Part shown: piece after piece, positions 1,635 through 45,415 of the stretch
How the letters are laid out: each line of letters starts with the position of its first letter
Numbering within the stretch: position 1 is the stretch's first letter
DNA from: a virus
Strand: one strand, 5' to 3'
Length of the DNA stretch: 64,000 bases
IMG/VR virus record: IMGVR_UViG_3300021185_003284
Coordinates: 32,001 to 96,000 of that record
Notes under the pieces: generated by a model
Seen by the model: the letters and a program-made list of their open reading frames with translations, nothing else
What the model was told of the DNA's origin: nothing
Databases searched by the model: none
Translations under genes and position numbers: made by a program

Positions 1635-1635
1635 A

Positions 1636-1935
1636 ATGAGTAAAGAAAAAAAAGAAGGATTCTTTTCAAACGTCAGAAATCAATTAATAGCAGGAGCTGG
1701 AGTAGTGTTAACTACCTTAGGTACTGTATTTACTGATAAGATCGAAGAGTTATTCGGAGTAGAAGATGATACAGCAATTGAAGTCGTTCAAGAACAAAAT
1801 GTAAATGTTGAAGGACCCTCGATTACTATCAATATTCCGGAACAACAAAAAGATACTGTAGTTAAAAAAGTTTACGTTAAACCTAAACCTAAATTAACAG
1901 ATACAGAAAAACGTAAGAAAGAAATCGACTGGTAA
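1636..1935 (+). CDS. Hypothetical membrane-anchored protein
   Basis: ATG at 1636 directly after previous stop; single hydrophobic segment. Confidence 0.6.
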   Translation: MSKEKKEGFFSNVRNQLIAGAGVVLTTLGTVFTDKIEELFGVEDDTAIEVVQEQNVNVEGPSITINIPEQQKDTVVKKVYVKPKPKLTDTEKRKKEIDW

Positions 1936-2027
1936 GAAACAAAAAAGAAGGGCCTGAATGTCGCAAATCCAGACCCCTCACATAGTTTCGAAAGAACTTG
2001 ATTGGTAACCTTTAAAATTAACTAACT

Positions 2028-2252
2028 ATGAATGTAATTAACTTTTTCGCAAGCCCCTTCATCTTAATGTATGAAGAAATCTTCGAGCAGCCAACTTTAT
2101 TATGGAAAATTTGGCAAACTCTTTTGCTAGTATGGGTATCTAGCTTATTTTTATTGTTTATTGTAGGCTGGTCTAGCTTAGTATTTGAACTAATTACTAA
2201 CCCATCATCATTCGACAACGCAACATTCGGGGTATTCGATACCCTTGGGTAA
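2028..2252 (+). CDS. Small membrane protein
   Basis: ORF with long hydrophobic helix, overlaps next gene. Confidence 0.55.
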   Translation: MNVINFFASPFILMYEEIFEQPTLLWKIWQTLLLVWVSSLFLLFIVGWSSLVFELITNPSSFDNATFGVFDTLG

Positions 2253-2964
2253 GTATATTAGTGTATTATTCGTAATATTCGGATTTGCACTAGTAAATGG
2301 ACAAGTCGTCGGAAAGACTACGACTGAGAATTATCAAGCGGAATTTGAGAGACAAGCCTCGTTATACTCAATTCCCGAATACTTTGGTGATCCAGTACCA
2401 GTAGCACTTCTAGACGTAGGTTTAACAGATGACATATTGCTACAGTATCCTGAACTAGGAGACTATCGTGTAGGCTTAGGTCTAACAAATATTACTGTAG
2501 CTTTTTTAGATGAAACTTTTAGATTTGAATTTGTAGAAACTAAAGATGAGATAAAGGACCGTATGATTGTACAGTTCAAAGCATCTCAGAAAGGATTTAC
2601 TGCTAATGAAATAGAGATAAGAGGAAAGATAACTCTTGCTCGATATTTTGCTTATGTAGAGATCTATGACTTTTCTATATCTGAAGATGAATCAATCAAT
2701 TTAAAAGACGGAGTGAAAAATACTCTTGTGACCAGACTTGGGCTCCAAGTTAAAATGGTCGATGCTCAAACCGGTCTATATATGACTGGTTCGGGATTAG
2801 GACTCGCTACAACTACTAGAGAGGTGACCATACTTAATGATCAAAATTTATCAGAAGTATCTTTCAATCAATCATCGATTGGGGTATCAACACGTAAAGC
2901 ATTAGAGACAGCAGTTGCTAAGATCGTTAAAAGGATGATAAGAAAGAAAATATTTGATCACTAA
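2245..2964 (+). CDS. CsgG/HfaB-like (curli assembly-type) exported protein
   Basis: Signal peptide; 'RFEFVE', 'LGLQVKMVDAQTG', 'RKALETAVAKIV' match the CsgG/TolB-N fold pattern. Confidence 0.65.
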   Translation: MGKYISVLFVIFGFALVNGQVVGKTTTENYQAEFERQASLYSIPEYFGDPVPVALLDVGLTDDILLQYPELGDYRVGLGLTNITVAFLDETFRFEFVETKDEIKDRMIVQFKASQKGFTANEIEIRGKITLARYFAYVEIYDFSISEDESINLKDGVKNTLVTRLGLQVKMVDAQTGLYMTGSGLGLATTTREVTILNDQNLSEVSFNQSSIGVSTRKALETAVAKIVKRMIRKKIFDH

Positions 2965-4825: not shown

Positions 4826-4873
4826 AAACTATTTATATTAAATAACGTTACACTAAAAACAGTTTTCATTATT

Positions 4874-5128
4874 ATGAACTATATAAAACGTAAATGGATG
4901 AGCTTTAGAGACATATTTAAAGACGAAAACGATATCAATGAAAAATCAGTAGTTGGTTTCGCAGCTTTCATAATCATGGTAATATTTGCATTTGCAGATT
5001 TAATTACTGGATATGTAGGCAAAGATTTAGTTATCAATGAGTACATATACAACTCATTTGTATGGATTGTATTAGGTGCTTTTGGTATTGCAGAAGCAGG
5101 AAAAGCTTTTGGACAAAGAAATAAATAA
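4874..5128 (+). CDS. Putative holin (two TM helices)
   Basis: Small 2-TM protein directly upstream of a DUF5675-like gene and spanin-like pair. Confidence 0.45.
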   Translation: MNYIKRKWMSFRDIFKDENDINEKSVVGFAAFIIMVIFAFADLITGYVGKDLVINEYIYNSFVWIVLGAFGIAEAGKAFGQRNK

Positions 5129-5131
5129 ATT

Positions 5132-5611
5132 ATGAAATTAGAAGTATTAAGATTCAGCTCACAGAGCGATTCTACACTCGGGTTATTATTCGATGTAACT
5201 AATGGTAGAAAGTTTTTATGTTTCACTATAGAAGATGAAGCAAGAGAAACTAAAGTAAAAGGAGAAACTAGAATACCTCAAGGTACGTATAAACTTAATT
5301 TACGTAAAGAAGGAGGATATCATAACAGATATGTTAAGAAGTACGGTTCAATGCATAAAGGTATGATTCATGTACAAGATGTACCGAATTTTACTTACAT
5401 ACTATGGCATACCGGTAATACTGACGAACATACAATGGGATGTTTACTATTCGGAGATACATCTCAGCAAAATATTTCTAAATCAGGATTTATAGGAGCT
5501 TCTACTGAAGCTTACAAAAGAGTTTACCCATCTATAGCAGAAGCTATTGAAAGAGATGGAGAAGCAGAAGTAACATATATTGACTTTGACGAAGGAATTA
5601 TCCACGGATAG
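5132..5611 (+). CDS. DUF5675-family protein (putative peptidoglycan-acting enzyme)
   Basis: Motifs STLG, CFTIED, ETRIPQGTY, ILWHTGN..HTMGCLL. Confidence 0.75.
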   Translation: MKLEVLRFSSQSDSTLGLLFDVTNGRKFLCFTIEDEARETKVKGETRIPQGTYKLNLRKEGGYHNRYVKKYGSMHKGMIHVQDVPNFTYILWHTGNTDEHTMGCLLFGDTSQQNISKSGFIGASTEAYKRVYPSIAEAIERDGEAEVTYIDFDEGIIHG

Positions 5612-5647
5612 TTGCTCGTCTGAGAAATATTTATTATATTGTATTAT

Positions 5648-6010
5648 ATGAAAGTAAAAGGTTTACAAGGATACCTACTGTTCGCTATATTAGGCGGGTT
5701 CGTAGCTTGGATGATATGGGGTCAACCTAAGATAAGTGTTGACATAGAGTCTTATGAATTAAAGATTCAGCTACTAGAACAGAGAATCGATTCTATAAAT
5801 ACTCAGAATAATGCTTTAAAATTAGAAGCTGATTCATTATATTTAAGAATAACCTCTTACGATCAAGAGATAAAGAAATTAAATTCTAGAATTTATGTTA
5901 TTAAGAAACAAACAGAGCAAAAAATTAATGCTGTTGATAGTATGTTTGATGATGAGCTTCAACAGTTTTTCGCAAACCGCTACAGACAGCATAAAGATTC
6001 AATTAACTAA
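5648..6010 (+). CDS. Membrane-anchored coiled-coil protein (i-spanin-like)
   Basis: N-terminal TM then coiled coil; overlaps next gene; lysis context. Confidence 0.45.
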   Translation: MKVKGLQGYLLFAILGGFVAWMIWGQPKISVDIESYELKIQLLEQRIDSINTQNNALKLEADSLYLRITSYDQEIKKLNSRIYVIKKQTEQKINAVDSMFDDELQQFFANRYRQHKDSIN

Positions 6011-6323
6011 GCCTATAGCTAAGTTAGTTATTAAAGACTTAATTCAGTTTGATGGACTATCAACTGAAATGCTTACTATGCAGTCTATTCTTACTGAGAC
6101 TAATAATAAGCTACTCACTCAGAACCAATTAGTTGTTAATTTAGAGCTACAAAATAACAATTTACAATCAGTTATCTCAGGTCTGAATAAGAAATATGAT
6201 GTTCAAACTAATCTTTCCAAGGATTTGGAAATAGCTTTAAAGAGACAAAAGAGACAATCTACTATTTATAAAATAGGAGCGGGTATCGGTGCAGCAGCTA
6301 CTCTTTTATTGCTAGTACAATGA
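5895..6323 (+). CDS. Exported coiled-coil protein with C-terminal hydrophobic tail (spanin-like partner)
   Basis: Overlaps previous gene; signal-like N-terminus; coiled coil. Confidence 0.4.
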   Translation: MLLRNKQSKKLMLLIVCLMMSFNSFSQTATDSIKIQLTKPIAKLVIKDLIQFDGLSTEMLTMQSILTETNNKLLTQNQLVVNLELQNNNLQSVISGLNKKYDVQTNLSKDLEIALKRQKRQSTIYKIGAGIGAAATLLLLVQ

Positions 6324-7438
6324 TAAAAAGATTTAAACAGAACATATTCCCAAGTATTATAGCAATTTCAGCATTGTCTGTTAGTGCTTCAGCTGCTTTC
6401 TATTCAGTTAGCGGACTATCTAAACTATTTGCAGGAGCTACATTTGAAGTAATTATAATGGCTGGTTCATTAGAGGTAGCAAAGTTAGTAATTGCATCTC
6501 TTTTATACCAATACTGGAATACAATTAATAAGCTTCTTAGAACGTATCTCACTATAGCTGCAGTAGTATTGGTACTCATTACTAGTATGGGTATATACGG
6601 CTTTTTAAGTGCAGCATATCAAGATACTTACAGACAGTTAACAGTTAAGAATAATCAAGTAGCATTTCTAGAACAAAAGACAGATTTTTATGGAAAGGAT
6701 GTGGCAAGGTATGATCAGGAACTTGAAAGAATCTCTAATAACATTTCTACTCTATCTGGTGCGAAAGCGACCTCGATTCAAGTACGAGACACGACATCAT
6801 CTACAGGCTTTCGATCAACAGTTAGTACTGCCGAACTTAGATTATCCCAAAGTCGTATTAATGTTGAAGAGGAAAATAGAGCATCTGTTCAATTAAAAAG
6901 AGAACAAGTAGCTGATAGTCTTCAGAAATACCAATTAGAAATATTAGATTTAGAGAATAATACAGATCTAGCAGGAGAGTTAGGACCACTAGAATACCTT
7001 TCTGGATTAACTGGCACTCCAATGGATAAGATTATTAATATACTACTCCTTGTAATTATATTTGTATTTGATCCTTTAGCTATTTCATTAGTAATAGCAG
7101 CAAACTTTGCCTTCGATCAAGCTAATAGAAAAAACTTATATGATGAATATGAGGATGAGGTTGAAGATGACTTATGGGATAGTAACGATAGTCCTAAAGA
7201 ATCAGAAGATACTTTACTGAACTACGATGAAGAAGATGAGAAAAGAATGGACGTTATAGGACGTAACGGTAATGATGGAGAACATTATGATGAGGATCCT
7301 AAAGACTGGAAAGTTGTAGACGGAGATCCAGTACCACAAAAGATACTACAAAAAGGACCAAGTGAACACAGAGTACTTTACAGTGATGGTTCTGAAAGAA
7401 AGGTTAGTAAAGACGACAACATTATCAAATATCTGTAG
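6320..7438 (+). CDS. Multi-TM coiled-coil membrane protein
   Basis: Three N-terminal TMs, coiled coil, TM with 'IFVFDPLAI', acidic tail. Confidence 0.7.
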   Translation: MIKRFKQNIFPSIIAISALSVSASAAFYSVSGLSKLFAGATFEVIIMAGSLEVAKLVIASLLYQYWNTINKLLRTYLTIAAVVLVLITSMGIYGFLSAAYQDTYRQLTVKNNQVAFLEQKTDFYGKDVARYDQELERISNNISTLSGAKATSIQVRDTTSSTGFRSTVSTAELRLSQSRINVEEENRASVQLKREQVADSLQKYQLEILDLENNTDLAGELGPLEYLSGLTGTPMDKIINILLLVIIFVFDPLAISLVIAANFAFDQANRKNLYDEYEDEVEDDLWDSNDSPKESEDTLLNYDEEDEKRMDVIGRNGNDGEHYDEDPKDWKVVDGDPVPQKILQKGPSEHRVLYSDGSERKVSKDDNIIKYL

Positions 7439-9024: not shown

Positions 9025-9060
9025 GCCTATTTATATATAAATATATAATTATATACTGTT

Positions 9061-9249
9061 ATGATAAAAGACGAAAAGCTTACCTCGGTTAAAATCACAC
9101 AACCTCTTTTTGACGAATTTAAAATGGCTGCCCTCAAAGACAACTTTTCTTTTAAAAAGCTTGCAGATCGGGCAATTTTTCTCTATCTTACTGATAAGGA
9201 GTTTAAGAAGCAAATACACAAAATAAATTCAATCAATATAAAAAGTTAA
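9061..9249 (+). CDS. Small putative DNA-binding protein (ribbon-helix-helix-like)
   Basis: 'LTSVKI...LFDEFK' pattern; follows TATTTATA motif. Confidence 0.5.
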   Translation: MIKDEKLTSVKITQPLFDEFKMAALKDNFSFKKLADRAIFLYLTDKEFKKQIHKINSINIKS

Positions 9250-10697
9250 TGGAAGAAAAATTAGGTTATATACCAAAGGATAAAAGAAAGAAGATACTAC
9301 TTTTATCTGATGATATCAGAATGCACTCAGGAGTTGCTACTATGTCGAGAGAGATTGTAGTAAAAACTGCTCATCACTTTAATTGGTTTCAATTAGGAGC
9401 AGCTTTAAAGCATCCAGAAGCAGGTAAGACATTTGATCTATCAGAAGATATAAATAAAAGAAGAGGTCTTAAAGATGCGGATATTAAAGTTCAACCTTAC
9501 AATGGATATGGAGATGCATTGAAAATACGTCAGCTACTCTTTACTGAAAAGCCAGATGCTATTTTTATATTTACTGACCCTAGATATTGGATATGGTTAT
9601 TTGAAATAGAAAGAGAGATAAGAAGTAAGATTCCTATTTTTTGGTTAAACATATGGGATGAGTATCCTGCTCCTATGTACAACAAACAGTATTATAATTC
9701 TGTTGATACTCTTATGGGTATATCTAAACAGACAGTTAATATTAATAAACTAGTATTAGGAGAAGAAGCTAAAGATAAGGTTATAGAGTATGTTCCTCAC
9801 GGAATAGATGAAGAGGCATTCTATCCTATTACTAAAGAACATCCATCTTGGGATAACTTTTCTAACTTTAGAAAAGACTTATTCGGAGAAAAAGAGATCG
9901 AGTATGTAGTTTTCTTTAACTCCAGAAATATTCAAAGGAAGCACCCAGGTGATACTATATTAGCTTATAAATACTTCTGTGATAAGATAGGACCTGAAAA
10001 AGCTAAGAAATGTGCTTTAGTAATGAAAGGAGAGATAAGTTCACCTCATGGTACAGATCTAAGAGCAGTAAGAGATGCTATATGTGATACAGAGTATGTT
10101 AATGTATTCTTTAACGAAGAGAGATTAACTCCAGAACAAATGAATATGTTATATAACGTAGCAGATGTTAATGTTTTAATGAGCTCTAATGAAGGATGGG
10201 GATTATCTTTAACTGAATCAATGATGTCAGGTACTATGATTATTCCTAACACTACTGGAGGTATGCAAGACCAATCTAGGTTCGAAGATGAAAATGGGAA
10301 GTGGATAGACTTTGATTCTGATTTTCCTTCTAACCATAGAGGTAAGTATAAAAAATGTGGAGAGTGGTCATTACCAGTCTTTCCTTCTAACTTAGCTCTT
10401 ATGGGGTCTCCTTTAACTCCTTATATATTTGACGATAGATGTAACTCAGAAGACGTAGCAGATAGAATGCTAGAGGCATATGAATTAGGTCAGGATGAAA
10501 GAAATAGAAGAGGCCTTAAAGGACGTGAGTGGGCTATGTCGGATGAAGCTAGTATGACAGCTGAGAAGATGGGCGATAGAATTATCGAAGTTATGGATAA
10601 AGGGTTTGATAGCTTTACTCCTAGAAGTGAATTCGATATTATTAAAGTAGAAAATTATGTTAAACCAAAAGTTACCCATAACTTGTTAGATTATTAA
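9249..10697 (+). CDS. Glycosyltransferase, GT-B/GT4-like
   Basis: SGVA, VPHGID, RNIQRK, EGWGLSLTESM motifs. Confidence 0.9.
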   Translation: MEEKLGYIPKDKRKKILLLSDDIRMHSGVATMSREIVVKTAHHFNWFQLGAALKHPEAGKTFDLSEDINKRRGLKDADIKVQPYNGYGDALKIRQLLFTEKPDAIFIFTDPRYWIWLFEIEREIRSKIPIFWLNIWDEYPAPMYNKQYYNSVDTLMGISKQTVNINKLVLGEEAKDKVIEYVPHGIDEEAFYPITKEHPSWDNFSNFRKDLFGEKEIEYVVFFNSRNIQRKHPGDTILAYKYFCDKIGPEKAKKCALVMKGEISSPHGTDLRAVRDAICDTEYVNVFFNEERLTPEQMNMLYNVADVNVLMSSNEGWGLSLTESMMSGTMIIPNTTGGMQDQSRFEDENGKWIDFDSDFPSNHRGKYKKCGEWSLPVFPSNLALMGSPLTPYIFDDRCNSEDVADRMLEAYELGQDERNRRGLKGREWAMSDEASMTAEKMGDRIIEVMDKGFDSFTPRSEFDIIKVENYVKPKVTHNLLDY

Positions 10698-10698
10698 T

Positions 10699-11958
10699 AT
10701 GAGTAAACCGTTATTTATTATAAGCGCTCCTGTAGATACCTATTCAGGATATGGAGCAAGATCAAGAGATATAGTTGATGCTATCATTGCAACAGATAGA
10801 TATGATGTAAAAATATTATCTCAACGATGGGGTAATACTAGATTTGGATATTTAGCTGATCATAAACGTCAAGATATGATTAAACTAATACTACCTCATG
10901 TAGTAAAGAAACCAGATTATTGGATGCAGATTACAGTACCTAATGAGTTTACTCCTGCAGGTAAATATAATATAGGTTGTACTGCTGGGATGGAAAATAC
11001 ATTAGTAGCCCCTCAATGGATTGAAGGTGTAAACAGAATGGACGTAGTATGGACATCATCAGAACATTCTAAGTTAGTATTTGAAGCAACTGCATATGAT
11101 ACTGAAGATAAGAAAACTAAAACGAAAGGACAGTTAAAATGTACTACACCTATAGAGGTAATATTTGAAGGAGTAGATACTACAAAGTACCTACCATCTC
11201 CAGGTGATAAGTTAGATTTATCTGATATACAAGAGCAGTTCTGTTATCTACTTGTTGGTCATTGGATGCAAGGAGACTTTGGAGAGGACAGAAAGAATGT
11301 AGGGTATACAATTAAAACTTTCTTAGAAACATTTAAAAATAAACCTAAGCAACCAGCATTAATATTAAAGACTTCTTTAGTTAATACATCTATATTAGAT
11401 AGAGATAGGTTACTACAGAGAATAGATGATATTAGAAAAACTGTAAAAGGTAAGTTACCCAACATTTATTTACTGCATGGAGAGCTTTCTGATGATAATA
11501 TAAACAATTTATATAATCACTCTAAGGTTAAAGTAATGGTAAGCCATACAAAAGGTGAAGGCTTTGGAAGACCTCTCTTAGAGTTTACTACTACAGGTAA
11601 ACCAGTTATAGCTTCCGGATGGTCAGGACAGGTAGACTTTTTAGATAAAGATAAAAGTATATTAATAGGAGGAACATTAGAGAATGTACATCAGTCGGCT
11701 ACGGTTAAAGATATGATACTTAAAGATGCGAAATGGTTTAAACCTAATGATGGAGAAACAGCTAGAGCATATAAAGAAACTTTTAAGCATTATAAGAAAT
11801 ACTTAATACCTGCTAAACAACAAAGAGCTAGAACTAATAAAGAGTTTACTCTAAATCATATGTTTACTTTAGTAGACAATAGACTAAAAGAATTACTTCC
11901 TGAGTTTCCTCAAGAGGTAGAATTGAAATTACCTGAATTAGAATTACCTAAATTATAG
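10699..11958 (+). CDS. Glycosyltransferase, GT-B/GT4-like
   Basis: SGYG, DRKN, KGEGFGRPLLE motifs. Confidence 0.9.
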   Translation: MSKPLFIISAPVDTYSGYGARSRDIVDAIIATDRYDVKILSQRWGNTRFGYLADHKRQDMIKLILPHVVKKPDYWMQITVPNEFTPAGKYNIGCTAGMENTLVAPQWIEGVNRMDVVWTSSEHSKLVFEATAYDTEDKKTKTKGQLKCTTPIEVIFEGVDTTKYLPSPGDKLDLSDIQEQFCYLLVGHWMQGDFGEDRKNVGYTIKTFLETFKNKPKQPALILKTSLVNTSILDRDRLLQRIDDIRKTVKGKLPNIYLLHGELSDDNINNLYNHSKVKVMVSHTKGEGFGRPLLEFTTTGKPVIASGWSGQVDFLDKDKSILIGGTLENVHQSATVKDMILKDAKWFKPNDGETARAYKETFKHYKKYLIPAKQQRARTNKEFTLNHMFTLVDNRLKELLPEFPQEVELKLPELELPKL

Positions 11959-20513: not shown

Positions 20514-21734
20514 ATGGATTTAGATTTTTATAATGAGCATGGATATCTCCATATCGAAAATGCTATCCCAAAAGAGTATATAGAAATTGCAAGAGAAAAA
20601 GGCATGCCTTTAGTCAAATGGTCTAGAGAAAATGTTAATAAACCTGCACTAGCTGGCCCACCTACATTAAATCTACATGTAGGATGTGCTGGAGCATATG
20701 AAGGAGAGTTAATGAACCTTTATACTTCTAAAATCTCATATGATTTAGTTACCACTATTTTACAGAAAAAAGATATATTTTTATTTAATGATCAAATGGT
20801 CTATAAGTTTCCAAATGATAACTTTACATTTGCTCCTCATTACGATAATCAATATGGAGCTGAAAATAAGGATGGTAAAATGCATACTGTTAATATGAGT
20901 TGGGTACTAGATGACTTTACAGATGATAACGGAACATTAGAACTTCAAAGCTTAAAAACAAAAGAGTGGCATAGAGTCTATCCTAAAGCAGGAGATATTA
21001 TAGCCATAAACGGAAACTGTATACATAGATCAGGTCCTAATACTTCTGATAAACCTAGAGGACTATATGCTTGTGTGTATTCTGAAGGACAGATAAACTT
21101 ACAAAATTACTATAAGGAACCTTTTCTACTTAAAGATACAGATACACAGCACCTTCATCATCTATCTAATGGCATACCAATACAACAATTTAGAGGATTT
21201 GAGGAGTACTTTACTAAATTTTTAGAACTAAATAAATTTGATAGGATATTAGAATTAGGAACTTCAAGAGGAGGTTTAACATATTTCCTCTCTACTATAT
21301 TTGACGGACCTATTATTACAGTTGATAACGTAACTAAGCTAATAGACCAAAAAGTATATAGTGTAGCACGAGTAATGGAAGCAGATCATATGAGCTTTCA
21401 AACTCAGCAGTTCTTACATAAAGAGTTTATTTCTAAAGAAGGAAAGACATTAGTACTTTGTGATGGAGGTGACAAACCTTCTATCTTTAATGCTTATGCT
21501 ACTTTAATAAAGGAGGGAGACTTTATAGGAGTGCATGATTTCTTTGTATCAAAGGAAGAATATGAAAAACAAAACGCTTGGAACTGGATGGAATGCTCAG
21601 AAGATCAAATAAAAAACGTGATACGTGAGTATAAACTAGAAAAGACTGATACTTATTTACTCAACATCGTTTGGGGTATGTATAAGAAGAACTCTAAGAA
21701 AGTAGATCTACCAACTTATTCATCTATAATATGA
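20514..21734 (+). CDS. Fusion of PhyH-like 2OG-Fe(II) dioxygenase and class I SAM methyltransferase-like domain
   Basis: HYD...H.S..N.S...R in N-half; ILELGTSRGG, LCDGG, VHD in C-half. Confidence 0.8.
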   Translation: MDLDFYNEHGYLHIENAIPKEYIEIAREKGMPLVKWSRENVNKPALAGPPTLNLHVGCAGAYEGELMNLYTSKISYDLVTTILQKKDIFLFNDQMVYKFPNDNFTFAPHYDNQYGAENKDGKMHTVNMSWVLDDFTDDNGTLELQSLKTKEWHRVYPKAGDIIAINGNCIHRSGPNTSDKPRGLYACVYSEGQINLQNYYKEPFLLKDTDTQHLHHLSNGIPIQQFRGFEEYFTKFLELNKFDRILELGTSRGGLTYFLSTIFDGPIITVDNVTKLIDQKVYSVARVMEADHMSFQTQQFLHKEFISKEGKTLVLCDGGDKPSIFNAYATLIKEGDFIGVHDFFVSKEEYEKQNAWNWMECSEDQIKNVIREYKLEKTDTYLLNIVWGMYKKNSKKVDLPTYSSII

Positions 21735-25515: not shown

Positions 25516-26361
25516 ATGTCAGATATTATGTTCAATTTTAAGCAAGATGAAACTTACATGAGTAAGGAAGATCTTAGGAATGAATGCCCTTTAGCATTCG
25601 CTAGTGCACCAACTAACCCTAATGTTAGTGGTAAATACTTATTCGTTAATACAGAAACTATTGTAGACGATTTAGATAAGTTAGGATGGAAACCAGTTCA
25701 AGCTGCTCAAAGAAAAGCTAGAGGTAATGCAGGTACTATTTTTAGTAAGCATATGGTTGCATTCCAGAATCCAGATATTAAGATTAAAGGTGAAGGCGGA
25801 GATGATGCTTGGCCTAGAATTATTATGACGAACAGTCATGATGGTATGCAAGCGTTTAAGTTTAGCGTTGGTATATTTAGAATGGTTTGTTCTAATGGTT
25901 TAGTAGTTGCAGATGAGCAATTTAGTGACTTTAAGATTAAGCATAAAGGTTATACCTTTGGTGAACTTAGAGAAGTAGTTAATCAAGCTGTAGCTGATCT
26001 TCCTAATAGAGTCCAAGTATTAAACGATATGAAAGATAGAGTTCTTACTCAAGAAGAAAAGAATAAATTAGCTTTAGATGCTATGTTAATTAGAGCTAAT
26101 ATTACTCCTGGTTCTGAAAAAGCAAAAGAGTTTAATTATGATGCTGAGACTATTGAAGATATTCTTGATCCTAAAAGAGATGAAGATAAAGGAGATGATC
26201 TTTGGAGAGTATTTAATGTAGTACAAGAAAAGATTACTCAAGGAGATTTCCATGCTGCATTAACAGGTGCAAAAGTAAGAAAAGTTCGTAAAATTAAATC
26301 TTTCGAAAAGGACTTGAAAGTTAATAAGGAACTATTTAAATTAGCGACTAATTTAATTTAG
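25516..26361 (+). CDS. DUF932/DUF945-family protein
   Basis: KHMV.F, NSHDG, FRMVCSNGL, LWRVFNVVQE. Confidence 0.85.
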   Translation: MSDIMFNFKQDETYMSKEDLRNECPLAFASAPTNPNVSGKYLFVNTETIVDDLDKLGWKPVQAAQRKARGNAGTIFSKHMVAFQNPDIKIKGEGGDDAWPRIIMTNSHDGMQAFKFSVGIFRMVCSNGLVVADEQFSDFKIKHKGYTFGELREVVNQAVADLPNRVQVLNDMKDRVLTQEEKNKLALDAMLIRANITPGSEKAKEFNYDAETIEDILDPKRDEDKGDDLWRVFNVVQEKITQGDFHAALTGAKVRKVRKIKSFEKDLKVNKELFKLATNLI

Positions 26362-26414: not shown

Positions 26415-27140
26415 ATGAATGTAGCAGTATTAGTAGAAATTATAAAAGAGACGGACAAAAATTGGCGATTCATATTTGAGTCGCCTTTGTACGATAAGAT
26501 AGATTTCGTCTCTGGCCAGCTTGTTCAATTAGCGATCCAGGATCCTATTGAGGCAGGCTACTACCATAAAAGAAATTATTCAGTAGCATCTTGGCCAGAT
26601 GGTACAAACAGGTTTGAACTTATCATAACCTACATACCTGGAGGTTTATTCTCTGAGTTTTTATTTAAGGAAGCAAAGATAGGAGATGAATTTCTCTACA
26701 GAGGTCCATTAGGAGTATTTACTTTACCGAACTTACAGAAACTAGATAGAGATATATACTTTGTGAGTACTGGTTCCGGAATAAGTCCTTTTAGATCCAT
26801 AATGGGTTGGATAGGAGAAAATCCTGATAAGATAGAAACTAAGAAGCTTAAATTATTCTTTGGTACACGAACTGAAAAGGAAATACTTTATAGAGATGAA
26901 ATGGAGGCTTTAGAAAAGAAGCTTCCTAACTTTGAATTCATTCCAACATTATCTCAAGAACAATGGGACGGTAAAACAGGATATGTCCATGACCACTACC
27001 TTAAACTAATAGATGAGATGGATGAAAAACCTTTAGTATACTATTGTGGATGGGATAAAATGATTAGAGAAGGAAGAAGCCATCTAGATGCTAGAGGATT
27101 TGAAATGACTAAAGATATCAGAGTAGAAATATTTGGATAA
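26415..27140 (+). CDS. Ferredoxin-NADP reductase-like FAD/NAD(P) oxidoreductase
   Basis: RNYSVAS, GGLFSEFL, GPLG.F, TGSGISP, YYCG, C-terminal EIFG. Confidence 0.9.
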   Translation: MNVAVLVEIIKETDKNWRFIFESPLYDKIDFVSGQLVQLAIQDPIEAGYYHKRNYSVASWPDGTNRFELIITYIPGGLFSEFLFKEAKIGDEFLYRGPLGVFTLPNLQKLDRDIYFVSTGSGISPFRSIMGWIGENPDKIETKKLKLFFGTRTEKEILYRDEMEALEKKLPNFEFIPTLSQEQWDGKTGYVHDHYLKLIDEMDEKPLVYYCGWDKMIREGRSHLDARGFEMTKDIRVEIFG

Positions 27141-27586
27141 TGGAAGGACCAATGGCAGCTTTAGACCTTCTTAACGAAAAGGCATTTCAGCATATAAAAA
27201 ATAACGTCGTCACTCAATTAACTTGTAGAAAAATTGGTCTTACGTTTTGTGCTTTGACCGATATTTATAAAGGACAAGAGGTATTCCTACCTTGGGATGG
27301 ACCAACAAGGGAATACAGCTTTATTGTAGATAGGATCGAAGAACTCCACGGAAACGTATTTGGTACCCTACTACGATACTTTGACAATCATTCTTATTTA
27401 GAAAAGGGTGTTGTTAATTTTAAATTAGTGCACGGTGTTAACTTTATAGTGGCACAACCTGAATGTATTTTATCCCCCGATGGAGAGGGTGGCAACTTAG
27501 AGTCAGGAACTATAAAGGCTAGATGGGATATTATTGCTACAACAGAGCTTTCACTCTATGAAGCAAGAAGTAGACCACTTTTGTAA
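27140..27586 (+). CDS. Degenerate SET-domain-like protein
   Basis: 'G..F.ALTDIYKGQEVF' and 'N....IKARWDI...EL..Y'; canonical NHS motif absent. Confidence 0.45.
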   Translation: MEGPMAALDLLNEKAFQHIKNNVVTQLTCRKIGLTFCALTDIYKGQEVFLPWDGPTREYSFIVDRIEELHGNVFGTLLRYFDNHSYLEKGVVNFKLVHGVNFIVAQPECILSPDGEGGNLESGTIKARWDIIATTELSLYEARSRPLL

Positions 27587-27612
27587 TACTATGCGTAATT
27601 GATAATTAACAA

Positions 27613-27620
27613 TATTTATA
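27613..27620 (+). promoter_or_regulatory. Putative late promoter TATTTATA upstream of the ATP-grasp/Hint gene
   Basis: Same motif precedes structural/lysis genes (4830, 47154, 49957, 58028). Confidence 0.6.
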
Positions 27621-27646
27621 ATAAACACTAATAAAACCCAAAAAGA

Positions 27647-29881
27647 ATGAAAGGTACATTATTTTCAGCTGACTTTGTAAAAGACGGAAACGGCGATAGT
27701 AAACTAATCGAAATCAACACTGATACAGCTTGTATCGCAGGATTAGCTTCTAACATCGACTTTACTGATCTTTACTCAGTTTTAGCTACAAACACAATCA
27801 CAGACCTACAGGTAATCTATAAAGAATTTCAAGAGCCAATCTTAGATAGACTTAAAGCTCAGAAACCTGAGGGAGTAACAATCACCGAACATAAGGAAAT
27901 ACACTCTTCTATATATCCAACTTCTATAGCAGACGATGCTACTAAGTTTATATTGAGATTAGCTTATGACGAAAATGCATTATTAGATGCCATTTACGCT
28001 AAAAATGATGCAAACTTACATGGTTTGTTCGGAGCACAAGGACCAGCATCAGCATCACTTGTAGTATCTGCTAAACAGTCAGCAGATTCCTCTAACCTTA
28101 ATTACGTATTAAACGGACCAACAGAACCAGATTTTGCTGTTAAGCCTAAAGTTCCTACTAAATCAGGAATTGACTTTTATAAGCTAGGAGGTTCAACAGG
28201 ATCTATTGAAGACAGGATAAACGAATTTACTGCTTCTATTGATTCAGGCGTTAATGTAATTACAAACTACGTTAGTGATGCAACAGATACAGCTAAGTCA
28301 GTAAGATCATATCAAATCGTATATGGAGCTGATTTAGATATCACTTGGTTAGGTGCTTATACTCTTGATGCTTTATTTACTCATACTTTAAGTTTAGTAT
28401 ACGATGATAATAAAGTAGTTAATAAATTAGCTAACAAGCATTACTATGAATTTGCTACTAATGACATCTCAGATAACGAAGGTGTTTATTATGAGGCTAA
28501 AATTAAGAAAGAAGATGGTAACTACGATGTAGCGGAAGATGCAGTAATAGGTACATTATATGATTCTTATTATGTAAGTGGATCGCCGATGACTGATAAC
28601 AGTCTTATATTAGACTCATGGTCTTTTGCTGGAGATACTCTACCTTCTGGTTCATATAGTACATCATCATCTTTACAGTCAAACACTTCAGTCACAATGG
28701 GAGATAATTCATTAAGAAGAATTACTCTTGATGACGGACAAACAGTACTATTAGGAGGAGCTAACAGAGCATTAGTACATGATAATGTTAATAATGAAAC
28801 TTCTTACTTAAGAGCTAGAGATATTAAAGCTGGATTCAAATTATTTGATGAAAACGGAGCTAGTAAAGGAGTTACTGCACATGATATAATCATATTAGAT
28901 AACGACTCAGATTCTAAAATTATAGAATTAGGAGTAGAGGATGTAGATAACTATGTTGTAAGTGGGTCTAATACTATTATTCACAACGCACCTTGTTTCA
29001 TTGCCGGAACTAAAGTTAATATGGAAGACGGTTCAATGAAGAATATTGAAGACGTTAAAGAAGGAGATCAAGTATGTTGTTGGGACTTTGAAATAAATGG
29101 TTTCTCAAATGAGAAAGTATTAATAACTACTGAAACAGAAGATCAGAAAGTAGTACAGATAACATTTAAATGCTTCGGTAATGATCTAGATATATATGCA
29201 ACTCCAGACCATCCATTCTTTGTAGAAGGTGGTAAAGGTTGGGCATGTCAAGATCCAGAATTACTTAAAGAAAAGACTGGAATGGAAGCTGCTCTATTAG
29301 ATGCAGGAGATAGTATACTGACAGGTAAGGAAGGAGAAACTTCTATTGTTACAGGAATTACTTCTTGTGACTGGACAGCGACAGTATATAACTTAGATAA
29401 CGTATTCAAATATAATAACTACTTTATATATGGAATGTTAGTACACAACAGATTTATCTTTTCTTGTCATACTTATGATAGTAAAGTAGAAATGGCTGAT
29501 GGTACTCACAAAGCTATAGGAGAAGTAAAAGTTGGAGATAAAGTAAAATCTATCAAAGACGGAATCGTAACAGAAGGTACTGTTACTGATCATTTAATTC
29601 ACGTTACTAACGATGTAATGAGAACAATCAAAACTACTAATGGATATACAGAAATCAATCACCCAATCTTAGTTGACGGTGAGTGGGTAGCTGCTAAAGA
29701 ATTAGGAGAAGTAGAAAGTGTATTTGTTGATAACTTCTATAACTTAGAAATTGACGGAAACATTTCTGAAAGTGATCATAACTATATCGTTGACGGAATG
29801 GTATCATCAGGATTAGGAGACAGCAAAGAGCTTAATGCTAAATATCAGAGACAACCTAAACAATTAACTAAACACTTATAA
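27647..29881 (+). CDS. Circularly permuted ATP-grasp-like domain fused to three tandem Hint (intein-like) domains
   Basis: N-term SADF...G..KLIEINT and FAVKP; Hint1 G279-N447 (ends IIHN), Hint2 C450-N601 (CFIAGT, TPDHPF, LVHN), Hint3 from C607 (CHTYDS, NHPI, ends GMVSSG). Confidence 0.85.
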   Translation: MKGTLFSADFVKDGNGDSKLIEINTDTACIAGLASNIDFTDLYSVLATNTITDLQVIYKEFQEPILDRLKAQKPEGVTITEHKEIHSSIYPTSIADDATKFILRLAYDENALLDAIYAKNDANLHGLFGAQGPASASLVVSAKQSADSSNLNYVLNGPTEPDFAVKPKVPTKSGIDFYKLGGSTGSIEDRINEFTASIDSGVNVITNYVSDATDTAKSVRSYQIVYGADLDITWLGAYTLDALFTHTLSLVYDDNKVVNKLANKHYYEFATNDISDNEGVYYEAKIKKEDGNYDVAEDAVIGTLYDSYYVSGSPMTDNSLILDSWSFAGDTLPSGSYSTSSSLQSNTSVTMGDNSLRRITLDDGQTVLLGGANRALVHDNVNNETSYLRARDIKAGFKLFDENGASKGVTAHDIIILDNDSDSKIIELGVEDVDNYVVSGSNTIIHNAPCFIAGTKVNMEDGSMKNIEDVKEGDQVCCWDFEINGFSNEKVLITTETEDQKVVQITFKCFGNDLDIYATPDHPFFVEGGKGWACQDPELLKEKTGMEAALLDAGDSILTGKEGETSIVTGITSCDWTATVYNLDNVFKYNNYFIYGMLVHNRFIFSCHTYDSKVEMADGTHKAIGEVKVGDKVKSIKDGIVTEGTVTDHLIHVTNDVMRTIKTTNGYTEINHPILVDGEWVAAKELGEVESVFVDNFYNLEIDGNISESDHNYIVDGMVSSGLGDSKELNAKYQRQPKQLTKHL

Positions 29882-29883
29882 TC

Positions 29884-30021
29884 ATGCCAGAAATATATAA
29901 AACAATCTCACTAGCAGATTACGGAAACAGAAATGCAACGGCTTTGACTGCTGACGAACAAACAGATGTAAGAGCAACTGTTACTAAGTTCATCGAACTT
30001 TTCAAAGCAGAACATTTATAA
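29884..30021 (+). CDS. 45-aa small protein (not in ORF track)
   Basis: Hand translation MPEIYKTISLADYGNRNATALTADEQTDVRATVTKFIELFKAEHL*; starts 2 nt after the Hint gene stop and ends 9 nt before the next ATG. Confidence 0.75.
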   Translation: MPEIYKTISLADYGNRNATALTADEQTDVRATVTKFIELFKAEHL

Positions 30022-30030
30022 GATAGTTAA

Positions 30031-30573
30031 ATGATCTTAGAGCAAAAGGTTTTATTGACTCCTAAGGAGTGTCAAGATGTAATAGCATCATGTAAAGACA
30101 TTTGGTACCCATCATTATTGGGTAAGGAGGAATATAAACCTAAGCTTAGAAATAGTTTCGTACATATTAAGAAACCAAGAAAAGGAGAGGCCTTGTATGA
30201 ATACATACAAAGAGGCCTTTCCCTTGTTTCTGAAGAGCTCGTATCTGAAGAACCTTTACTTATTCAGATATTAAAATACAAAAAAGGAGGATTTATCTAC
30301 AAGCATAAAGATGACGTTACCTCTTCATTAAATGGTTTAGTTCAAGCACGTTACTACTTTATTATTCTTCTTAATGATGATTTTGAAGGAGGAGATTTTC
30401 TAGCATATGATAATAAAGATACTGTGTATAAATTAGATAGGAAACAAGGTAACATACTTATAGGAGATCCGACTATGTTTCATGAAGTTACTAAAGTTAC
30501 AAAAGGTACAAGATATAGCCTAATATGTTTTATTACACCAGACCTTCTTAAACCTAATAATACTATAATTTAA
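30031..30573 (+). CDS. 2OG-Fe(II) oxygenase (prolyl 4-hydroxylase-like)
   Basis: KY..G....HKD, LNDDFEGG, HEV..V..G.RYSL. Confidence 0.9.
   Translation: MILEQKVLLTPKECQDVIASCKDIWYPSLLGKEEYKPKLRNSFVHIKKPRKGEALYEYIQRGLSLVSEELVSEEPLLIQILKYKKGGFIYKHKDDVTSSLNGLVQARYYFIILLNDDFEGGDFLAYDNKDTVYKLDRKQGNILIGDPTMFHEVTKVTKGTRYSLICFITPDLLKPNNTII
30182..30229 (+). terminator. Strong intragenic hairpin followed by a T-rich tract (possible attenuator)
   Basis: GGAGAGGCC/GGCCTTTCC plus TTGTATG/CATACAA stems, AATA loop, then CTTGTTT. Confidence 0.45.
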
Positions 30574-31121
30574 TGAAACCTAATTTTAAACATTATGGTT
30601 CTATAAATGTAGCTCCTTTTCTTTCTGCTTTGGAAGCTATCAAACCTCAAGACTGGAGTAAATATACCTACCGTCAAGACTTATTTCCTATGCATAACAA
30701 AACTCAAACTATACCAGTACTATATGATACAGACTACGAAATAGGAGTAAGTAAAAAATCATCTTTTTACAAAATATTTGAAAGTTCAATAGAGCATGCA
30801 ACTAAAAAGATATCTGAGTTAACCAAATCTAACTGCTCTATAATAAGATTTATTATTACTAACCTTCCAGCTAATACAGTAGTCGATGAGCATAGAGATA
30901 AAGCAAATAGTTTTAAACTTTATAATAGAGTACATATACCTTTAATTACTAATGATAAAGTTCTTTTCACAGTAGGAGAAGAAACAATCAATATGCCTGT
31001 AGGAGAAATGTATGAAATAAACAACAATGATCAACTTCATGGAGTAGTAAATAGCAGTAACCAAGACAGGCTACATATTATTTTAGATTGGTATGATTAT
31101 ACTAAAAGAACAGCCATATGA
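30573..31121 (+). CDS. Aspartyl/asparaginyl beta-hydroxylase-like 2OG-Fe(II) oxygenase
   Basis: HRD, RVHIPLITN, GEMYEINN, H.V.N....RLHIILD. Confidence 0.85.
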   Translation: MKPNFKHYGSINVAPFLSALEAIKPQDWSKYTYRQDLFPMHNKTQTIPVLYDTDYEIGVSKKSSFYKIFESSIEHATKKISELTKSNCSIIRFIITNLPANTVVDEHRDKANSFKLYNRVHIPLITNDKVLFTVGEETINMPVGEMYEINNNDQLHGVVNSSNQDRLHIILDWYDYTKRTAI

Positions 31122-31609
31122 AAAATATACTAATAATAGCATTACCAAGATCAGGAGGAACTTCTATTATGCATCAGTTAGCTGAAAAGCATAATTTAAA
31201 AGCAAGATTTGAACCTGAATTAACTCAATGGCCAGTAGCACCTAAAGACGACGTTACCAAAGTTATTGTTGATAGATTCAGTATGGTAGATATTTTTTCT
31301 ATAGCTGAAAATTACGATAATATTATATTGCATAGCAGACATGATATAGAATCTACAGCAGAATCTTTAGCTACAATGCTTCATCACTGGGGAGATGAAA
31401 GTCATGCTGAGAAACCATGGCATGCTGATTTACTCAAAGAAGTACCGCAGTGGTATTTAGAGCAAACTAACCATAGAATAGTACATTGTCAATTACTAAT
31501 GCATGTATTAAGTGACGAACTTAAAGTACCTATTCAATATTATGAAGATCTATTTGACCTTAATTCAAAAGAAAGATTAAGAAAAGATTTAGATAGAACA
31601 CTGTTATGA
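31118..31609 (+). CDS. Sulfotransferase-like (P-loop) protein
   Basis: IALPRSGGTSI (PAPS 5'-phosphosulfate-binding loop), FEP, YYEDLF. Confidence 0.7.
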   Translation: MKNILIIALPRSGGTSIMHQLAEKHNLKARFEPELTQWPVAPKDDVTKVIVDRFSMVDIFSIAENYDNIILHSRHDIESTAESLATMLHHWGDESHAEKPWHADLLKEVPQWYLEQTNHRIVHCQLLMHVLSDELKVPIQYYEDLFDLNSKERLRKDLDRTLL

Positions 31610-32322
31610 TAAAAATTATATGGACATACGATAAAAATGTATTTCACGATGAGGGTACCATTAAAAATAATAAAGCTTACTATAAAAGATCTATTATAGA
31701 TGCTAAAATATTTGGACATCCAACAGAAATGTACTCTAATGATAGAGATTTTGAACACCTAGTAGATACTTTTCATTATGTAGATACACCAGTAATGTTC
31801 TGGGATGAATTTAAATCATTTCCTCTTCATGATAATAAAAGTGATTTTCTACTATCAGATGGTGATATAATTTGGCACCAAGGCTTCAAAGTAAATAAAA
31901 ATGTTGATGTTTTAATTGATAGTTATGAAGACTTTAATTGGAAATCACTTTACGAAATAGATGTTAATACATTATCTTATTTAGAAATTAATAAGGTTAT
32001 TCCGGAATGGGATGGTAAGAAGAGAGCAGCCTTTTGTACAGGTATACTAAGCTTCAATAATAAAGAATATCAAGCACTTTATTTAGATAGGTATATAAAA
32101 TTTAAAGCATTTGTAGAAAGGTATAGGAATATGCTAGACGTCAGTAAATGTACAGCAATAGGAGCACAGTACCTATTAGCTACTATAGCAGATGTTAAAG
32201 GATATTCTCATTACGCTTACTCTAACAAAGTGAGAGAGAATAATGGCATCTACACACACTACTCAGGCAAGAAGAAACATACCGATAGTTTTCTTCCTCT
32301 TACTAAAAAACATCTACTTTAG
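31606..32322 (+). CDS. Putative GT-A fold nucleotide-diphospho-sugar transferase
   Basis: LSDGDII (DXD), CTGIL, AQYLL, YTHYSG.KK. Confidence 0.55.
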   Translation: MIKIIWTYDKNVFHDEGTIKNNKAYYKRSIIDAKIFGHPTEMYSNDRDFEHLVDTFHYVDTPVMFWDEFKSFPLHDNKSDFLLSDGDIIWHQGFKVNKNVDVLIDSYEDFNWKSLYEIDVNTLSYLEINKVIPEWDGKKRAAFCTGILSFNNKEYQALYLDRYIKFKAFVERYRNMLDVSKCTAIGAQYLLATIADVKGYSHYAYSNKVRENNGIYTHYSGKKKHTDSFLPLTKKHLL

Positions 32323-32567
32323 CTTGTTTTTCTGCTATATTCTTCTTATATTGATAGTTCACTAATATAATATAAAACATATGGAAAGCTACTTTATTTT
32401 AAAATCAAAACTAAATTTTAAACTTCAACAAACTGTAGTCGATGGGGGTGGAATACGCCTAGGAGGGTATAACTATATCCAACTAAGCTCAAAACCTAGA
32501 GGTCGATCTATTAAACACAACTTAATTGGCTCAGACTCTGGAGATCGATTTGTAATTTACAATTAAA

Positions 32568-43572: not shown

Positions 43573-43587
43573 TTTACTGCTTTTATA

Positions 43588-43618
43588 TAAATATAAGAAA
43601 AGTTAATTTAGAAAGCAA
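43588..43618 (-). promoter_or_regulatory. Early-type promoter for minus-strand island
   Basis: TTG-N20-TATATTTA on the minus strand. Confidence 0.75.
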
Positions 43619-43640
43619 GTAGGTAATGATATTTATTGGT

Positions 43641-44084: not shown

Positions 44085-44146
44085 GATAGTTGCCTCCCTG
44101 ACAAAGATTTCTTATATTTAAGTATAAATAAGAAACAATAAAGGTT

Positions 44147-45263: not shown

Positions 45264-45415
45264 TTGCTTATACGAATTATATTTAATATCTTCAATATAT
45301 AATTAATAAGATATTAATATAGATAATAAATAATATAATATATAATAATAAAAATATATATATACTTATATAAATATATAATATAATTAATAATAAATAA
45401 ATAAAAGGTTACACT

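Follow-up and report, generated by a model that had tools for sequence, protein, structure and literature searches.

Bacterial intein-like (BIL) domains, those of the Tetrahymena BUBL loci included (6tmm, 6y75, 2lwy), carry a pattern for cleavage at either end instead of splicing, and in PT-HINT (PF07591) polymorphic toxins and Hedgehog/Vint proteins a self-cleaving Hint domain releases or activates the module beside it. Enzymes of the glutathionylspermidine synthetase (GspS) and glutathione synthetase (GS) kind turn a carboxylate, in the typical case the C-terminus of a peptide, into an activated acyl phosphate and couple it to an amine. In ribosomally synthesised peptides with post-translational modifications (RiPPs) of the graspetide type, a small conserved open reading frame (ORF) stands by an ATP-grasp gene and variable tailoring enzymes, and the repertoire diversifies fast. 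The locus described here resembles each of these systems in part. It lies in a 64,000-nucleotide stretch of viral DNA (hereafter the window), bases 32001-96000 of the 113-kb IMG/VR viral contig IMGVR_UViG_3300021185_003284, whose completeness is estimated at 68%. A gene for a 744-amino-acid (aa) polyprotein (27647-29881, on the + strand like the rest of the locus), preceded by a 60-nt gap, encodes a putative ATP-grasp domain and three Hint units; a 2-nt spacer separates it from a 45-aa ORF (p45; 29884-30021), and four genes for candidate tailoring enzymes follow, with a fifth upstream of the polyprotein gene. A sequence-only reading of the window had taken these genes, together with a reductase gene further upstream, for a RiPP-like tailoring cluster. 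All genes it named were present in the ORF map at the positions it gave, and a profile or fold comparison served to check each family call. Of the cluster itself, one recurring cassette of enzyme families associated with protein side chains held up, while the reductase fell outside and one of the oxygenases proved to be rare. We give an even chance to the interpretation that 27140-32322, without the reductase, is one functional cassette encoding one pathway that acts on a polypeptide, with p45 as the likeliest substrate or scaffold and the polyprotein as ligase and hub.

The core of this interpretation is the association of the polyprotein gene with its neighbours in other phages. An alignment-based scan of IMG/VR yielded 80 related loci (81 with the window added) whose polyproteins are 30-37% identical to that of the window; a scan of the IMG/VR viral contigs with the single protein as query had found nothing. 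All ORFs of these loci were called and clustered, and de-replication at 80% identity left 45 clusters. A p45 homologue on the same strand, starting 2-100 nt past the Hint gene, accompanies the latter in every locus (81 of 81) and in every cluster (45 of 45); the automatic call had recovered 77, the remaining four having been masked by spurious antisense ORFs. p45 is an obligate partner of the polyprotein. The enzyme genes do co-occur with the ATP-grasp/Hint gene in related phages, and they do so with a marked polarity: enzyme families fill 119 of 218 slots at positions +2 to +6 (55%), versus 18 of 209 at -6 to -2 (9%). Slot +2, directly after p45, holds an oxygenase of the prolyl 4-hydroxylase (P4H)-type 2-oxoglutarate (2OG) family in 20 of the 45 clusters, a SET-like protein in 11, a sulfotransferase-like protein in three and a SET protein in one. 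Overall, the loci contain 141 copies of the P4H-type 2OG family, spread over 73 of them; sulfotransferase-like members are present in 37 and GT-A members in 23, and relatives add radical-SAM enzymes (88 copies in 45 loci). In two loci (L027 and L032, bases 32-7089), six consecutive paralogues of the radical-SAM family precede the cassette, and two more stand downstream.

Seven phages (loci L003, L022, L042, L065, L068, L070 and L079) carry flanking genes 70-89% identical to those of the window. In them the same backbone genes bracket the cassette, namely a DUF932 gene (25516-26361 in the window) and a gene for a 61-aa protein (32381-32566), and zero to four different enzymes lie inside; their polyproteins are only 31-37% identical to that of the window. 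This fast turnover of the cassette suggests a role in phage-host or phage-phage conflict. Two genes that the sequence-only reading had counted as regular members did not behave as such. The Asp/Asn beta-hydroxylase-like oxygenase gene recurs in only four related loci, representing no more than two relatives once de-replicated (L042/L043 and L065/L067), and is a rare accessory of the cassette. The ferredoxin-NADP reductase-like (FNR) gene (26415-27140; Pfam NAD_binding_1 at 4e-22, FAD_binding_6 at 3e-10) has homologues in only 10 of 81 regions, the window included, which lie 1.2-5.3 kb from the Hint gene and usually past the cassette boundary. Because of this scarcity and the varying distance, FNR looks like a backbone gene.

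The enzymes are further tied together by their C-termini. All five in the window end in a basic residue, two arbitrary residues and a hydrophobic pair (RSRPLL, KPNNTII, KRTAI, DRTLL and KKHLL in gene order), versus about 9 of the 82 other ORFs; across the loci, the tail motif of these unrelated enzymes reads basic-x-x-(L/I)(L/I)-COOH. It is present in 93% of GT-A family members, 81% of the sulfotransferase-like family, 71% of the 2OG and SET-like families and 58% of the radical-SAM family, and in 0% of most backbone families. By position, 30 of 45 genes at slot +2 bear the tag, versus about 12% upstream. We considered whether the motif could be a by-product of stop/start overlaps or of a ribosome-binding site, and rejected this: in every junction class 67-79% of the enzymes carry it, versus 7-21% of other genes, with the same frequency at ATGA overlaps, at TAATG overlaps and at gaps over 60 nt. 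Since the frequency is independent of how the next gene starts, the tag is a protein-level signal. Besides, the residue after the Lys of the tag is not biased towards Asp, Glu or Gly. The three families chosen a priori from the original finding already show the tag; the addition of the others was partly guided by it, which brings some circularity into the counts. The common C-terminal tag, of which the sequence-only reading made no mention, ties the enzymes together at the protein level. In this it recalls the cargo-loading peptides of encapsulin systems and the peroxisomal targeting signal PTS1, likewise short C-terminal motifs on co-encoded enzymes of unrelated folds; in contrast to those, no encapsulin and no Pex5-like or PDZ-like reader was identified for the phage tag, and the motif itself differs. 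Two further genes of the 2OG-FeII_Oxy_3 family lie outside the cassette in the same phage, one within the window (20514-21734) and one beyond it (genome 28886-29137; L084). Both encode proteins that end in a hydrophobic pair (…YSSII and …KFPLL), and the tag may mark this enzyme class genome-wide.

About 535 homologues of the polyprotein turned up in marine metagenomes, with lengths of about 618, 745 and 900 aa. An AlphaFold (AF2) model of the region of residues 1-447, built from 48 sequences (predicted local distance difference test, pLDDT, 88; predicted template modelling score, pTM, 0.81), divides into residues 1-274, with an ATP-grasp fold, and residues 276-447, with a Hint fold. When residues 1-274 (27647-28468) were compared with known structures by VIA-align, the best matches were GSS22 (Z 9.6), YgiC (9.5), Trypanosoma brucei GS (8.8), E. 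coli GspS (8.7) and Cp1B (8.2), with 200-220 of the 274 residues overlapping. All non-Hint matches of the model above Z 7 were ATP-grasp enzymes (Z 7.5-9.6); LysX/ArgX, tubulin-tyrosine-ligase-like (TTLL) enzymes and ITPK1 matched more weakly (Z 5-6), and so did two folds that are not ATP-grasp, phosphoglycerate mutase and SixA (Z 5.5-6.2). Human GS was matched by Foldseek at 3e-6, and the Atlas neighbours named GspS or circularly permuted ATP-grasp (0.85-0.86) we treat as a lead only. Eight residues are invariant in the 48 sequences (D9, E22, N24, K59, R104, K166, K179 and R220). The acidic-Glu-x-Asn cluster precedes the conserved lysines in the same order as in the GspS-type chain (2io7, range 311-608 aligned to residues 2-274), and by analogy with GspS, D9/E22/N24 and the conserved Lys would serve Mg and ATP binding. 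Among the curated family models, GSP_synth stayed below threshold (E 0.054, 13.1 bits versus a cut-off of 29.3, in 2 of 48 members), and ATPgrasp_ST was matched in 2 of 48 members. Because the GSP_synth sequence match is sub-threshold, the assignment rests on fold and residues, from which residues 1-274 are predicted to form an ATP-grasp domain of the GspS/GS kind. As compared with GspS, GS, YgiC and Cp1B, whose fold it resembles, the phage protein lacks the N-terminal substrate domain of GspS and GS, starts at the Mg-site hairpin and is fused to Hint units.

The first of these units, Hint0 (residues 276-447; 28472-28987), is cryptic at the sequence level. Its fold matches the Clostridium thermocellum BIL domain 2lwy with Z 19.2 (root-mean-square deviation 1.6 over 138 aa; VIA-align) and 6tmm with Z 18.5, and a profile of residues 1-447 matches the Tetrahymena BIL2 domain 6tmm, the mutated Cys1 (C1A) of which is aligned to Gly279. 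Position 1 of Hint0 is this nearly invariant Gly, not Cys, Ser or Thr, and the conserved TxxH block is missing. The terminal H446-N447, the pair that Asn-cyclisation cleavage requires, is retained (N447 invariant, H446 at least 90% conserved). An Ala-Pro linker (28988-28993) leads to Hint1 (residues 450-601; 28994-29449), a complete BIL-type Hint with Cys450, T519-x-x-H522 and H600-N601, followed by Arg602 and hence lacking a +1 nucleophile; C450, T519 and H522 are at least 90% conserved, and Pfam matches comprise PT-HINT (6e-18), Intein_splicing, Hint and AXH. After an RFIFS linker (29450-29464), Hint2 (residues 606-724 match Pfam Vint at 2e-16) starts with Cys607 and lacks the terminal His-Asn; together with a 20-residue tail and the stop codon, residues 607-724 span 29465-29881. 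The tail motif SGLGDN..LN..Y.RQ is kept among forms with two Hints. Hint1 and Hint2 are predicted to be able to form thioesters at Cys450 and Cys607, respectively.

Since a +1 nucleophile is lacking after any His-Asn (Ala448 follows Hint0, Arg602 follows Hint1, and relatives with one Hint end in His-Asn-Lys), no unit counts as an intein, and judging from these residues the three would be cleaving Hints of the BIL or Hedgehog kind. All three fold like BIL domains, and Cys1, TxxH and His-Asn without a +1 nucleophile in Hint1 make up the either-end cleavage pattern. As at BUBL loci, tandem Hints flank short segments; in contrast to them, no ubiquitin-like cargo lies between the phage Hints, the linkers being 0-13 unconserved residues. 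Neither do BIL or BUBL proteins match the Gly at position 1 of Hint0, the fusion of the array to an ATP-grasp domain, the pairing with a separate small protein or the occurrence in phages. PT-HINT toxins and Hedgehog/Vint proteins provide the best Pfam matches, and Hint2 is Hedgehog-like in having a C-terminal extension and no terminal His-Asn. However, no toxin domain follows the phage Hints, one-Hint forms stop at His-Asn-Lys, the releasable module is upstream and an enzyme, and secretion or delivery domains are missing. The 'AP' and 'RFIFS' linkers themselves are unlikely to be product peptides as a general rule: the Hint0-Hint1 linker varies from 0 to 13 residues among 60 distinct relatives without being conserved, and is absent in at least 11 of the 60. 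In two loci (L030 and L076) an extra stand-alone Hint ORF of about 160 aa lies just after p45.

Beyond the 81 loci, a full-library hidden Markov model search with the ATP-grasp profile retrieved only 327 representatives among 1.84 billion, the match nearly always starting at residue 1. This wider family always has the order ATP-grasp, Hint0 ending in His-Asn, then an appendage, which is either absent or a short basic tail, a peptide of about 30 aa with six to eight cysteines, or one to three Hints. In Cys-peptide forms a Cys occurs 0-2 residues past the His-Asn, as it does in about half of the forms that carry Hints; in the rest of the latter it lies up to 13 residues away. The Cys-rich appendage resembles a fused core peptide; it directly follows His-Asn, with no further Hints, in the distant relatives P0230, P0237, P0241, P0244, P0246, P0253 and P0261. 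One conjecture about the ligase-Hint0 unit, which we regard as distinctly unlikely to be right, is that it works as an ATP-powered 'half intein' and as a hub for tag-docked enzymes. A normal Hint makes an activated carboxylate from the junction at its own N-terminus; here the ATP-grasp domain would supply it in acyl-phosphate form, and p45 or a tagged protein could contribute its C-terminus as that carboxylate. Hint0, which is devoid of the position-1 Cys, would use its His-Asn and the downstream Cys to join the carboxylate to the C-terminal appendage, or to release the latter, and the common C-terminal tail would dock the phage-specific enzyme set on the hub. Should this be true, it would be a new, enzyme-scaffolded way of building and ligating modified peptides, virtually restricted to DNA from viruses and metagenomes.

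Members of the p45 family are 43-53 aa long, and the window's p45 has no Pfam or PHROG match. Tyr5 is invariant, Lys6 is found in 47 of 51 sequences, and Arg16, Lys26, Phe36, Lys41 and His44 are conserved as well; the protein ends in K-H-(S/L), with Ser or Leu as the final residue. The basic C-terminal helix is conserved. The middle varies, is rich in Thr, Ser, Asp, Glu and Lys, and has no fixed motif. Because both ends are conserved and the middle is variable, p45 could be an adaptor instead of a substrate. The pairing of an ATP-grasp enzyme with a small protein of conserved C-terminus is reminiscent of LysX-LysW, one of the protein-tail ligase systems along with RimK and TTL, though p45 ends in K-H-(S/L) and not in an acidic tail. 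A -KHL end common to p45 and the polyprotein tail did not prove general, as the Vint-type tails of other loci end otherwise.

The candidate tailoring enzymes were each assigned from conserved residues, profiles or models. The 148-aa ORF upstream of the polyprotein gene (27140-27586; 1-base overlap with FNR) aligns at 20-31% identity with a family of about 144 aa that has 28 copies in 21 loci, usually right after p45. Over its full length, the profile of this family matches the SET domain of KMT2C (E 3.4e-4, positions 12-140), and the relatives keep F-V-N-S-G and G-E-E-L-L-S-N-Y-G. The window copy is without the conserved H-W, N-S and NYG residues, in keeping with the earlier label 'degenerate SET-like'. 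A separate SET family, present in five loci, passes the Pfam SET model at 2.4e-11. Downstream of p45, the 180-aa ORF (30031-30573) is a putative 2OG-Fe(II) oxygenase of the PKHD/P4H type (Pfam 2OG-FeII_Oxy_3, 3e-9, 38 bits versus a cut-off of 27) with iron/2OG residues H92-K-D94, H151 and R161, the last two invariant in 37 sequences. Its family profile matches 3dkq (4e-14), PiuC and Bacillus anthracis P4H (9e-9), and also algal and PBCV-1 P4H and the mimivirus lysyl hydroxylase. The next ORF, of 182 aa (30573-31121; 1-nt overlap), is the Asp/Asn beta-hydroxylase-like oxygenase (Asp_Arg_Hydrox, 4.6e-11, 43.2 bits versus a cut-off of 22.6, profile positions 68-154 of 157), with the iron-binding residues H107-x-D109 and H156 present.

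The last two genes each start in an ATGA overlap. The 163-aa ORF (31118-31609) encodes a short sulfotransferase-like protein with a 3'-phosphoadenosine 5'-phosphosulfate (PAPS) loop, P10-R-S-G-G-T-S; R11, G13 and R74 never vary, and S83 does so only rarely. Pfam Sulfotransfer_3 is hit below its cut-off (E 0.083), and the family profile touches the CurM sulfotransferase and NodH in the PDB within the PAPS loop, at a weak E of 0.45-0.66. Atlas model neighbours are Stf0 sulfotransferases (TM 0.77) and Sulfotransfer_1/3 proteins (TM 0.72); the phage protein is about 90 residues shorter than Stf0. The 238-aa ORF (31606-32322) has neither a Pfam nor a PDB sequence match, the Pfam scan being likewise negative for the 148-aa and 45-aa ORFs. 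Its AF2 model (pLDDT 90, pTM 0.88) aligns by VIA-align at Z 12-12.8 over 186-206 residues with glycogenin (12.8), the UGGT catalytic domain, LARGE1, GlyE, the Skp1 galactosyltransferase and LgtC, and by Foldseek with alpha-1,3-galactosyltransferase at 1.7e-5; in the DxD motif D85-G-D87, both Asp are invariant in 22 sequences. By its model, this protein is probably a GT8-like retaining glycosyltransferase of the GT-A fold, the nearest folds being mostly protein glycosyltransferases.

By profile or model, the cassette enzymes fall into or resemble families best known for protein side-chain chemistry. The presence of a P4H/lysyl-hydroxylase-type 2OG enzyme near a GT8-like GT-A protein parallels the hydroxylation-then-glycosylation pathways of Skp1, collagen, PBCV-1 and mimivirus. 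The nearest folds of the GT-A protein include the Skp1 galactosyltransferase and collagen glucosyltransferases, and p45 offers its invariant Tyr with the neighbouring Lys. However, the phage encodes no collagen-like or Skp1-like substrate, and the pairing of 2OG and GT-A is not constant across loci. With RiPPs, the locus further shares the Cys-rich peptide fused to the enzyme in distant relatives; it differs from graspetide loci in that the nearest folds of the ATP-grasp are of the GspS/GS and not the RimK/MdnC kind (no RimK-type graspetide ligase was among the top 50 fold matches of the polyprotein) and that no leader/core pattern or recognition-element domain was identified. To our knowledge, Hint domains and a shared C-terminal enzyme tag are features of no known RiPP class, and a literature search found no class that has them. 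Neither did we find a published description of the layout of ligase-Hint, p45 and tagged enzymes. The closest described set in marine phages is the cyanophage 'second gene cluster' of carbamoyltransferases, 2OG/double-stranded beta-helix (DSBH) hydroxylases, a halogenase and methylases, which has been interpreted as a pathway for a secondary metabolite or for decorating the capsule (Iyer et al. 2021, PMC7824862). It overlaps with the present cassette in enzyme families and in variable content, yet its description includes no ATP-grasp/Hint protein, small partner ORF or tag.

The mechanism that we favour would have the polyprotein and p45 genes as an invariant core, to which each phage appends its own selection of prolyl/lysyl-hydroxylase-type 2OG, SET-like, sulfotransferase-like and GT8-like enzymes, and radical-SAM enzymes in relatives. 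The polyprotein would process itself at the Hint junctions and act both as ligase and as the place where the enzymes assemble by way of their common tag. Polyprotein and enzymes together would add hydroxyl, methyl, sulfate or sugar groups to a peptide or protein of ribosomal origin, with p45 as the likeliest candidate, and ligate it to a partner, the decoration varying between phages. If this is indeed one pathway, it would represent a new RiPP-like or protein-modification architecture, in which an amide ligase is fused to Hints, provided with a tiny partner and surrounded by unrelated enzymes recruited through a tag. The cassette is found in abundant ocean phages. Many of the 2OG oxygenase-type and similar 'auxiliary metabolic genes' of marine phages may belong to one phage-specific modification system. 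Its parts, if their activities are confirmed, might be used for protein ligation, enzyme docking and combinatorial peptide decoration.

Several observations weigh against this mechanism. The ATP-grasp call combines middling fold matches (Z 8-9.6) and conserved residues with a best Pfam hit, GSP_synth, below threshold. The conservation of both p45 ends around a varying middle is not the usual RiPP arrangement of conserved leader and hypervariable core. 2OG oxygenases are common in these phages, with the two additional copies outside the cassette, so their co-occurrence is in part background. The neighbourhood of many loci, with sugar-nucleotide enzymes, carbamoyltransferases and APS (adenosine 5'-phosphosulfate) kinase, also fits a glycan or small-molecule product. 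The RNA support detailed below consists of assembled contigs from runs that were chosen with the window stretch, for which DNA carry-over is possible and which show neither transcript starts nor levels. Finally, the analysis is computational, and neither a product nor cleavage nor activity was observed.

The same cassette could have another target: host or virion proteins would be modified, for capsid or tail-fibre decoration or for host takeover, and p45 would be a small adaptor, regulator or chaperone. The enzyme families act on proteins in known systems, the nearest GT-A folds include the capsid and adhesin glycosyltransferases PBCV-1 A64R and GlyE, and the conserved p45 ends look like those of a folded helical partner. 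Besides, like genes for host interaction, the cassette has a much higher rate of divergence than the backbone, and the promoter-like motif TATTTATA in front of the polyprotein gene is common to genes of the baseplate and tail-fibre region. That motif is, however, the sole tie to structural genes and also precedes non-structural ones; the polyprotein and p45 have no structural annotation in PHROG; and the Cys-rich peptide fused to the same ligase-Hint0 unit in distant relatives would be left unexplained. We consider this target rather unlikely, while granting it a real chance.

That the enzymes do not form a pathway at all, and are independent auxiliary metabolic genes piled up in a hypervariable island where the ligase-Hint/p45 pair occupies the same hot spot, appears improbable to us. 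2OG oxygenases, sugar-nucleotide enzymes and PhoH are classic scattered auxiliary genes of marine phages, the composition of the cassette is highly variable, 2OG genes lie elsewhere in this genome too, and the cyanophage cluster of carbamoyltransferases and 2OG/DSBH enzymes was described without a ligase-Hint gene (PMC7824862). Chance accumulation would nonetheless have to account for a C-terminal tag that is common to unrelated folds and absent from backbone genes, for the concentration of enzymes in the slots right after p45 (55% versus 9%) and for a pairing that is invariant across polyproteins of only 30-37% identity. Very improbable, in our estimate, is a small-molecule or glycan product, i.e. 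an amino-acid- or sugar-derived metabolite or a capsule decoration, perhaps built on p45 as a LysW-like carrier with the ATP-grasp making the amide. The closest ATP-grasp folds do include the small-molecule ligases GspS, GS and Cp1B, the latter from E-64 biosynthesis (PMC12568646), and LysX/ArgX match too; genes for carbamoyltransferase, APS kinase, GDP-mannose dehydratase, SIS and cytidylyltransferase proteins neighbour the relatives, and the comparable cyanophage enzymes have been interpreted in this way (Iyer et al. 2021, PMC7824862). Yet SET-like proteins and PKHD/P4H-type hydroxylases are protein-directed in known cases, the window cassette holds no sugar-nucleotide or carbamoyl genes, and both the Hint domains and the relatives' fused Cys-rich peptide point to polypeptide chemistry.

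A member of the APS-kinase family stands beside the cassette in 15 loci. In L002, L004, L013-L017, L027, L034 and others, there is, upstream of the Hint gene, a gene for a 555-aa carbamoyltransferase that invariably has a 38-aa ORF ending in FIYNH behind it, and then come genes for APS kinase, a 121-aa protein ending in K-x-T-H-S (compare the K-H-S of p45) and a 69-aa protein. This set is a second conserved module with its own micro-ORF.

The cassette belongs to a widespread group of uncultured marine T4-like phages. The source of the window (about 33% G+C, almost every gene on the + strand) is a divergent T4-like myovirus, as marked by a gp6-like baseplate wedge and T4-type tail-fibre proteins. 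A blastn search of the stretch against 50,697 isolate phage records found no similar sequence. With the polyprotein and a divergent ligase-Hint0 unit as tblastn queries, the same records gave no homologue, the sole matches being mycobacteriophage inteins to Hint1. Among 185,579 species genomes there was one match, a 2.8-kb contig (L082; CAYNGR010000277.1) binned with an uncultured Cyanobium metagenome-assembled genome, which is a weak host hint or a binning artefact and does not suffice for naming a host. Almost all of the family's occurrences are in viral and metagenomic DNA. A near-identical stretch recurs in seawater metagenomes of many studies and in six metatranscriptome runs; in four metatranscriptome runs, contigs of 100% identity cover the polyprotein and p45. 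The largest RNA-library contig (26454-30910) extends from FNR through the Asp/Asn hydroxylase gene, another (27170-30225) from the 148-aa ORF through the 2OG gene, and a third (27639-30047) covers the polyprotein and p45. A ranking of the genes by contig depth was discarded as invalid; only the bridging of the polyprotein and p45 was used.

The copy of TATTTATA in front of the polyprotein gene (27613-27620, +) lies 26 nt before its ATG. In the window the motif is mildly over-represented (25 copies versus 17 expected), and 7-9 of the 14 + strand copies fall in non-coding spacers, which make up about 10% of the window. With a similar A/C-rich left flank it stands in the spacers before 14155, 22849, 47179, 49968, 58054, 9061 and 4874. 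The sequence-only reading had described it as shared with structural genes and taken this to suggest late expression; genes of the baseplate and tail-fibre region indeed share it, but so do non-structural ones. The canonical T4 late motif TATAAATA marks other genes, at 43586-43593, 44123-44130 and 45369-45376, before the genes at 43626, 44147 and 45416, respectively. Scans for sigma-70 promoters and terminators remained at chance level, with no + strand terminator past 32322. Before 9061, a palindrome, TATTTATATATAAATA (9028-9043), joins the TATTTATA and TATAAATA motifs. Far from the cassette, two adjacent glycosyltransferase genes (phrog_2170) occupy 9249-11958 of the window.

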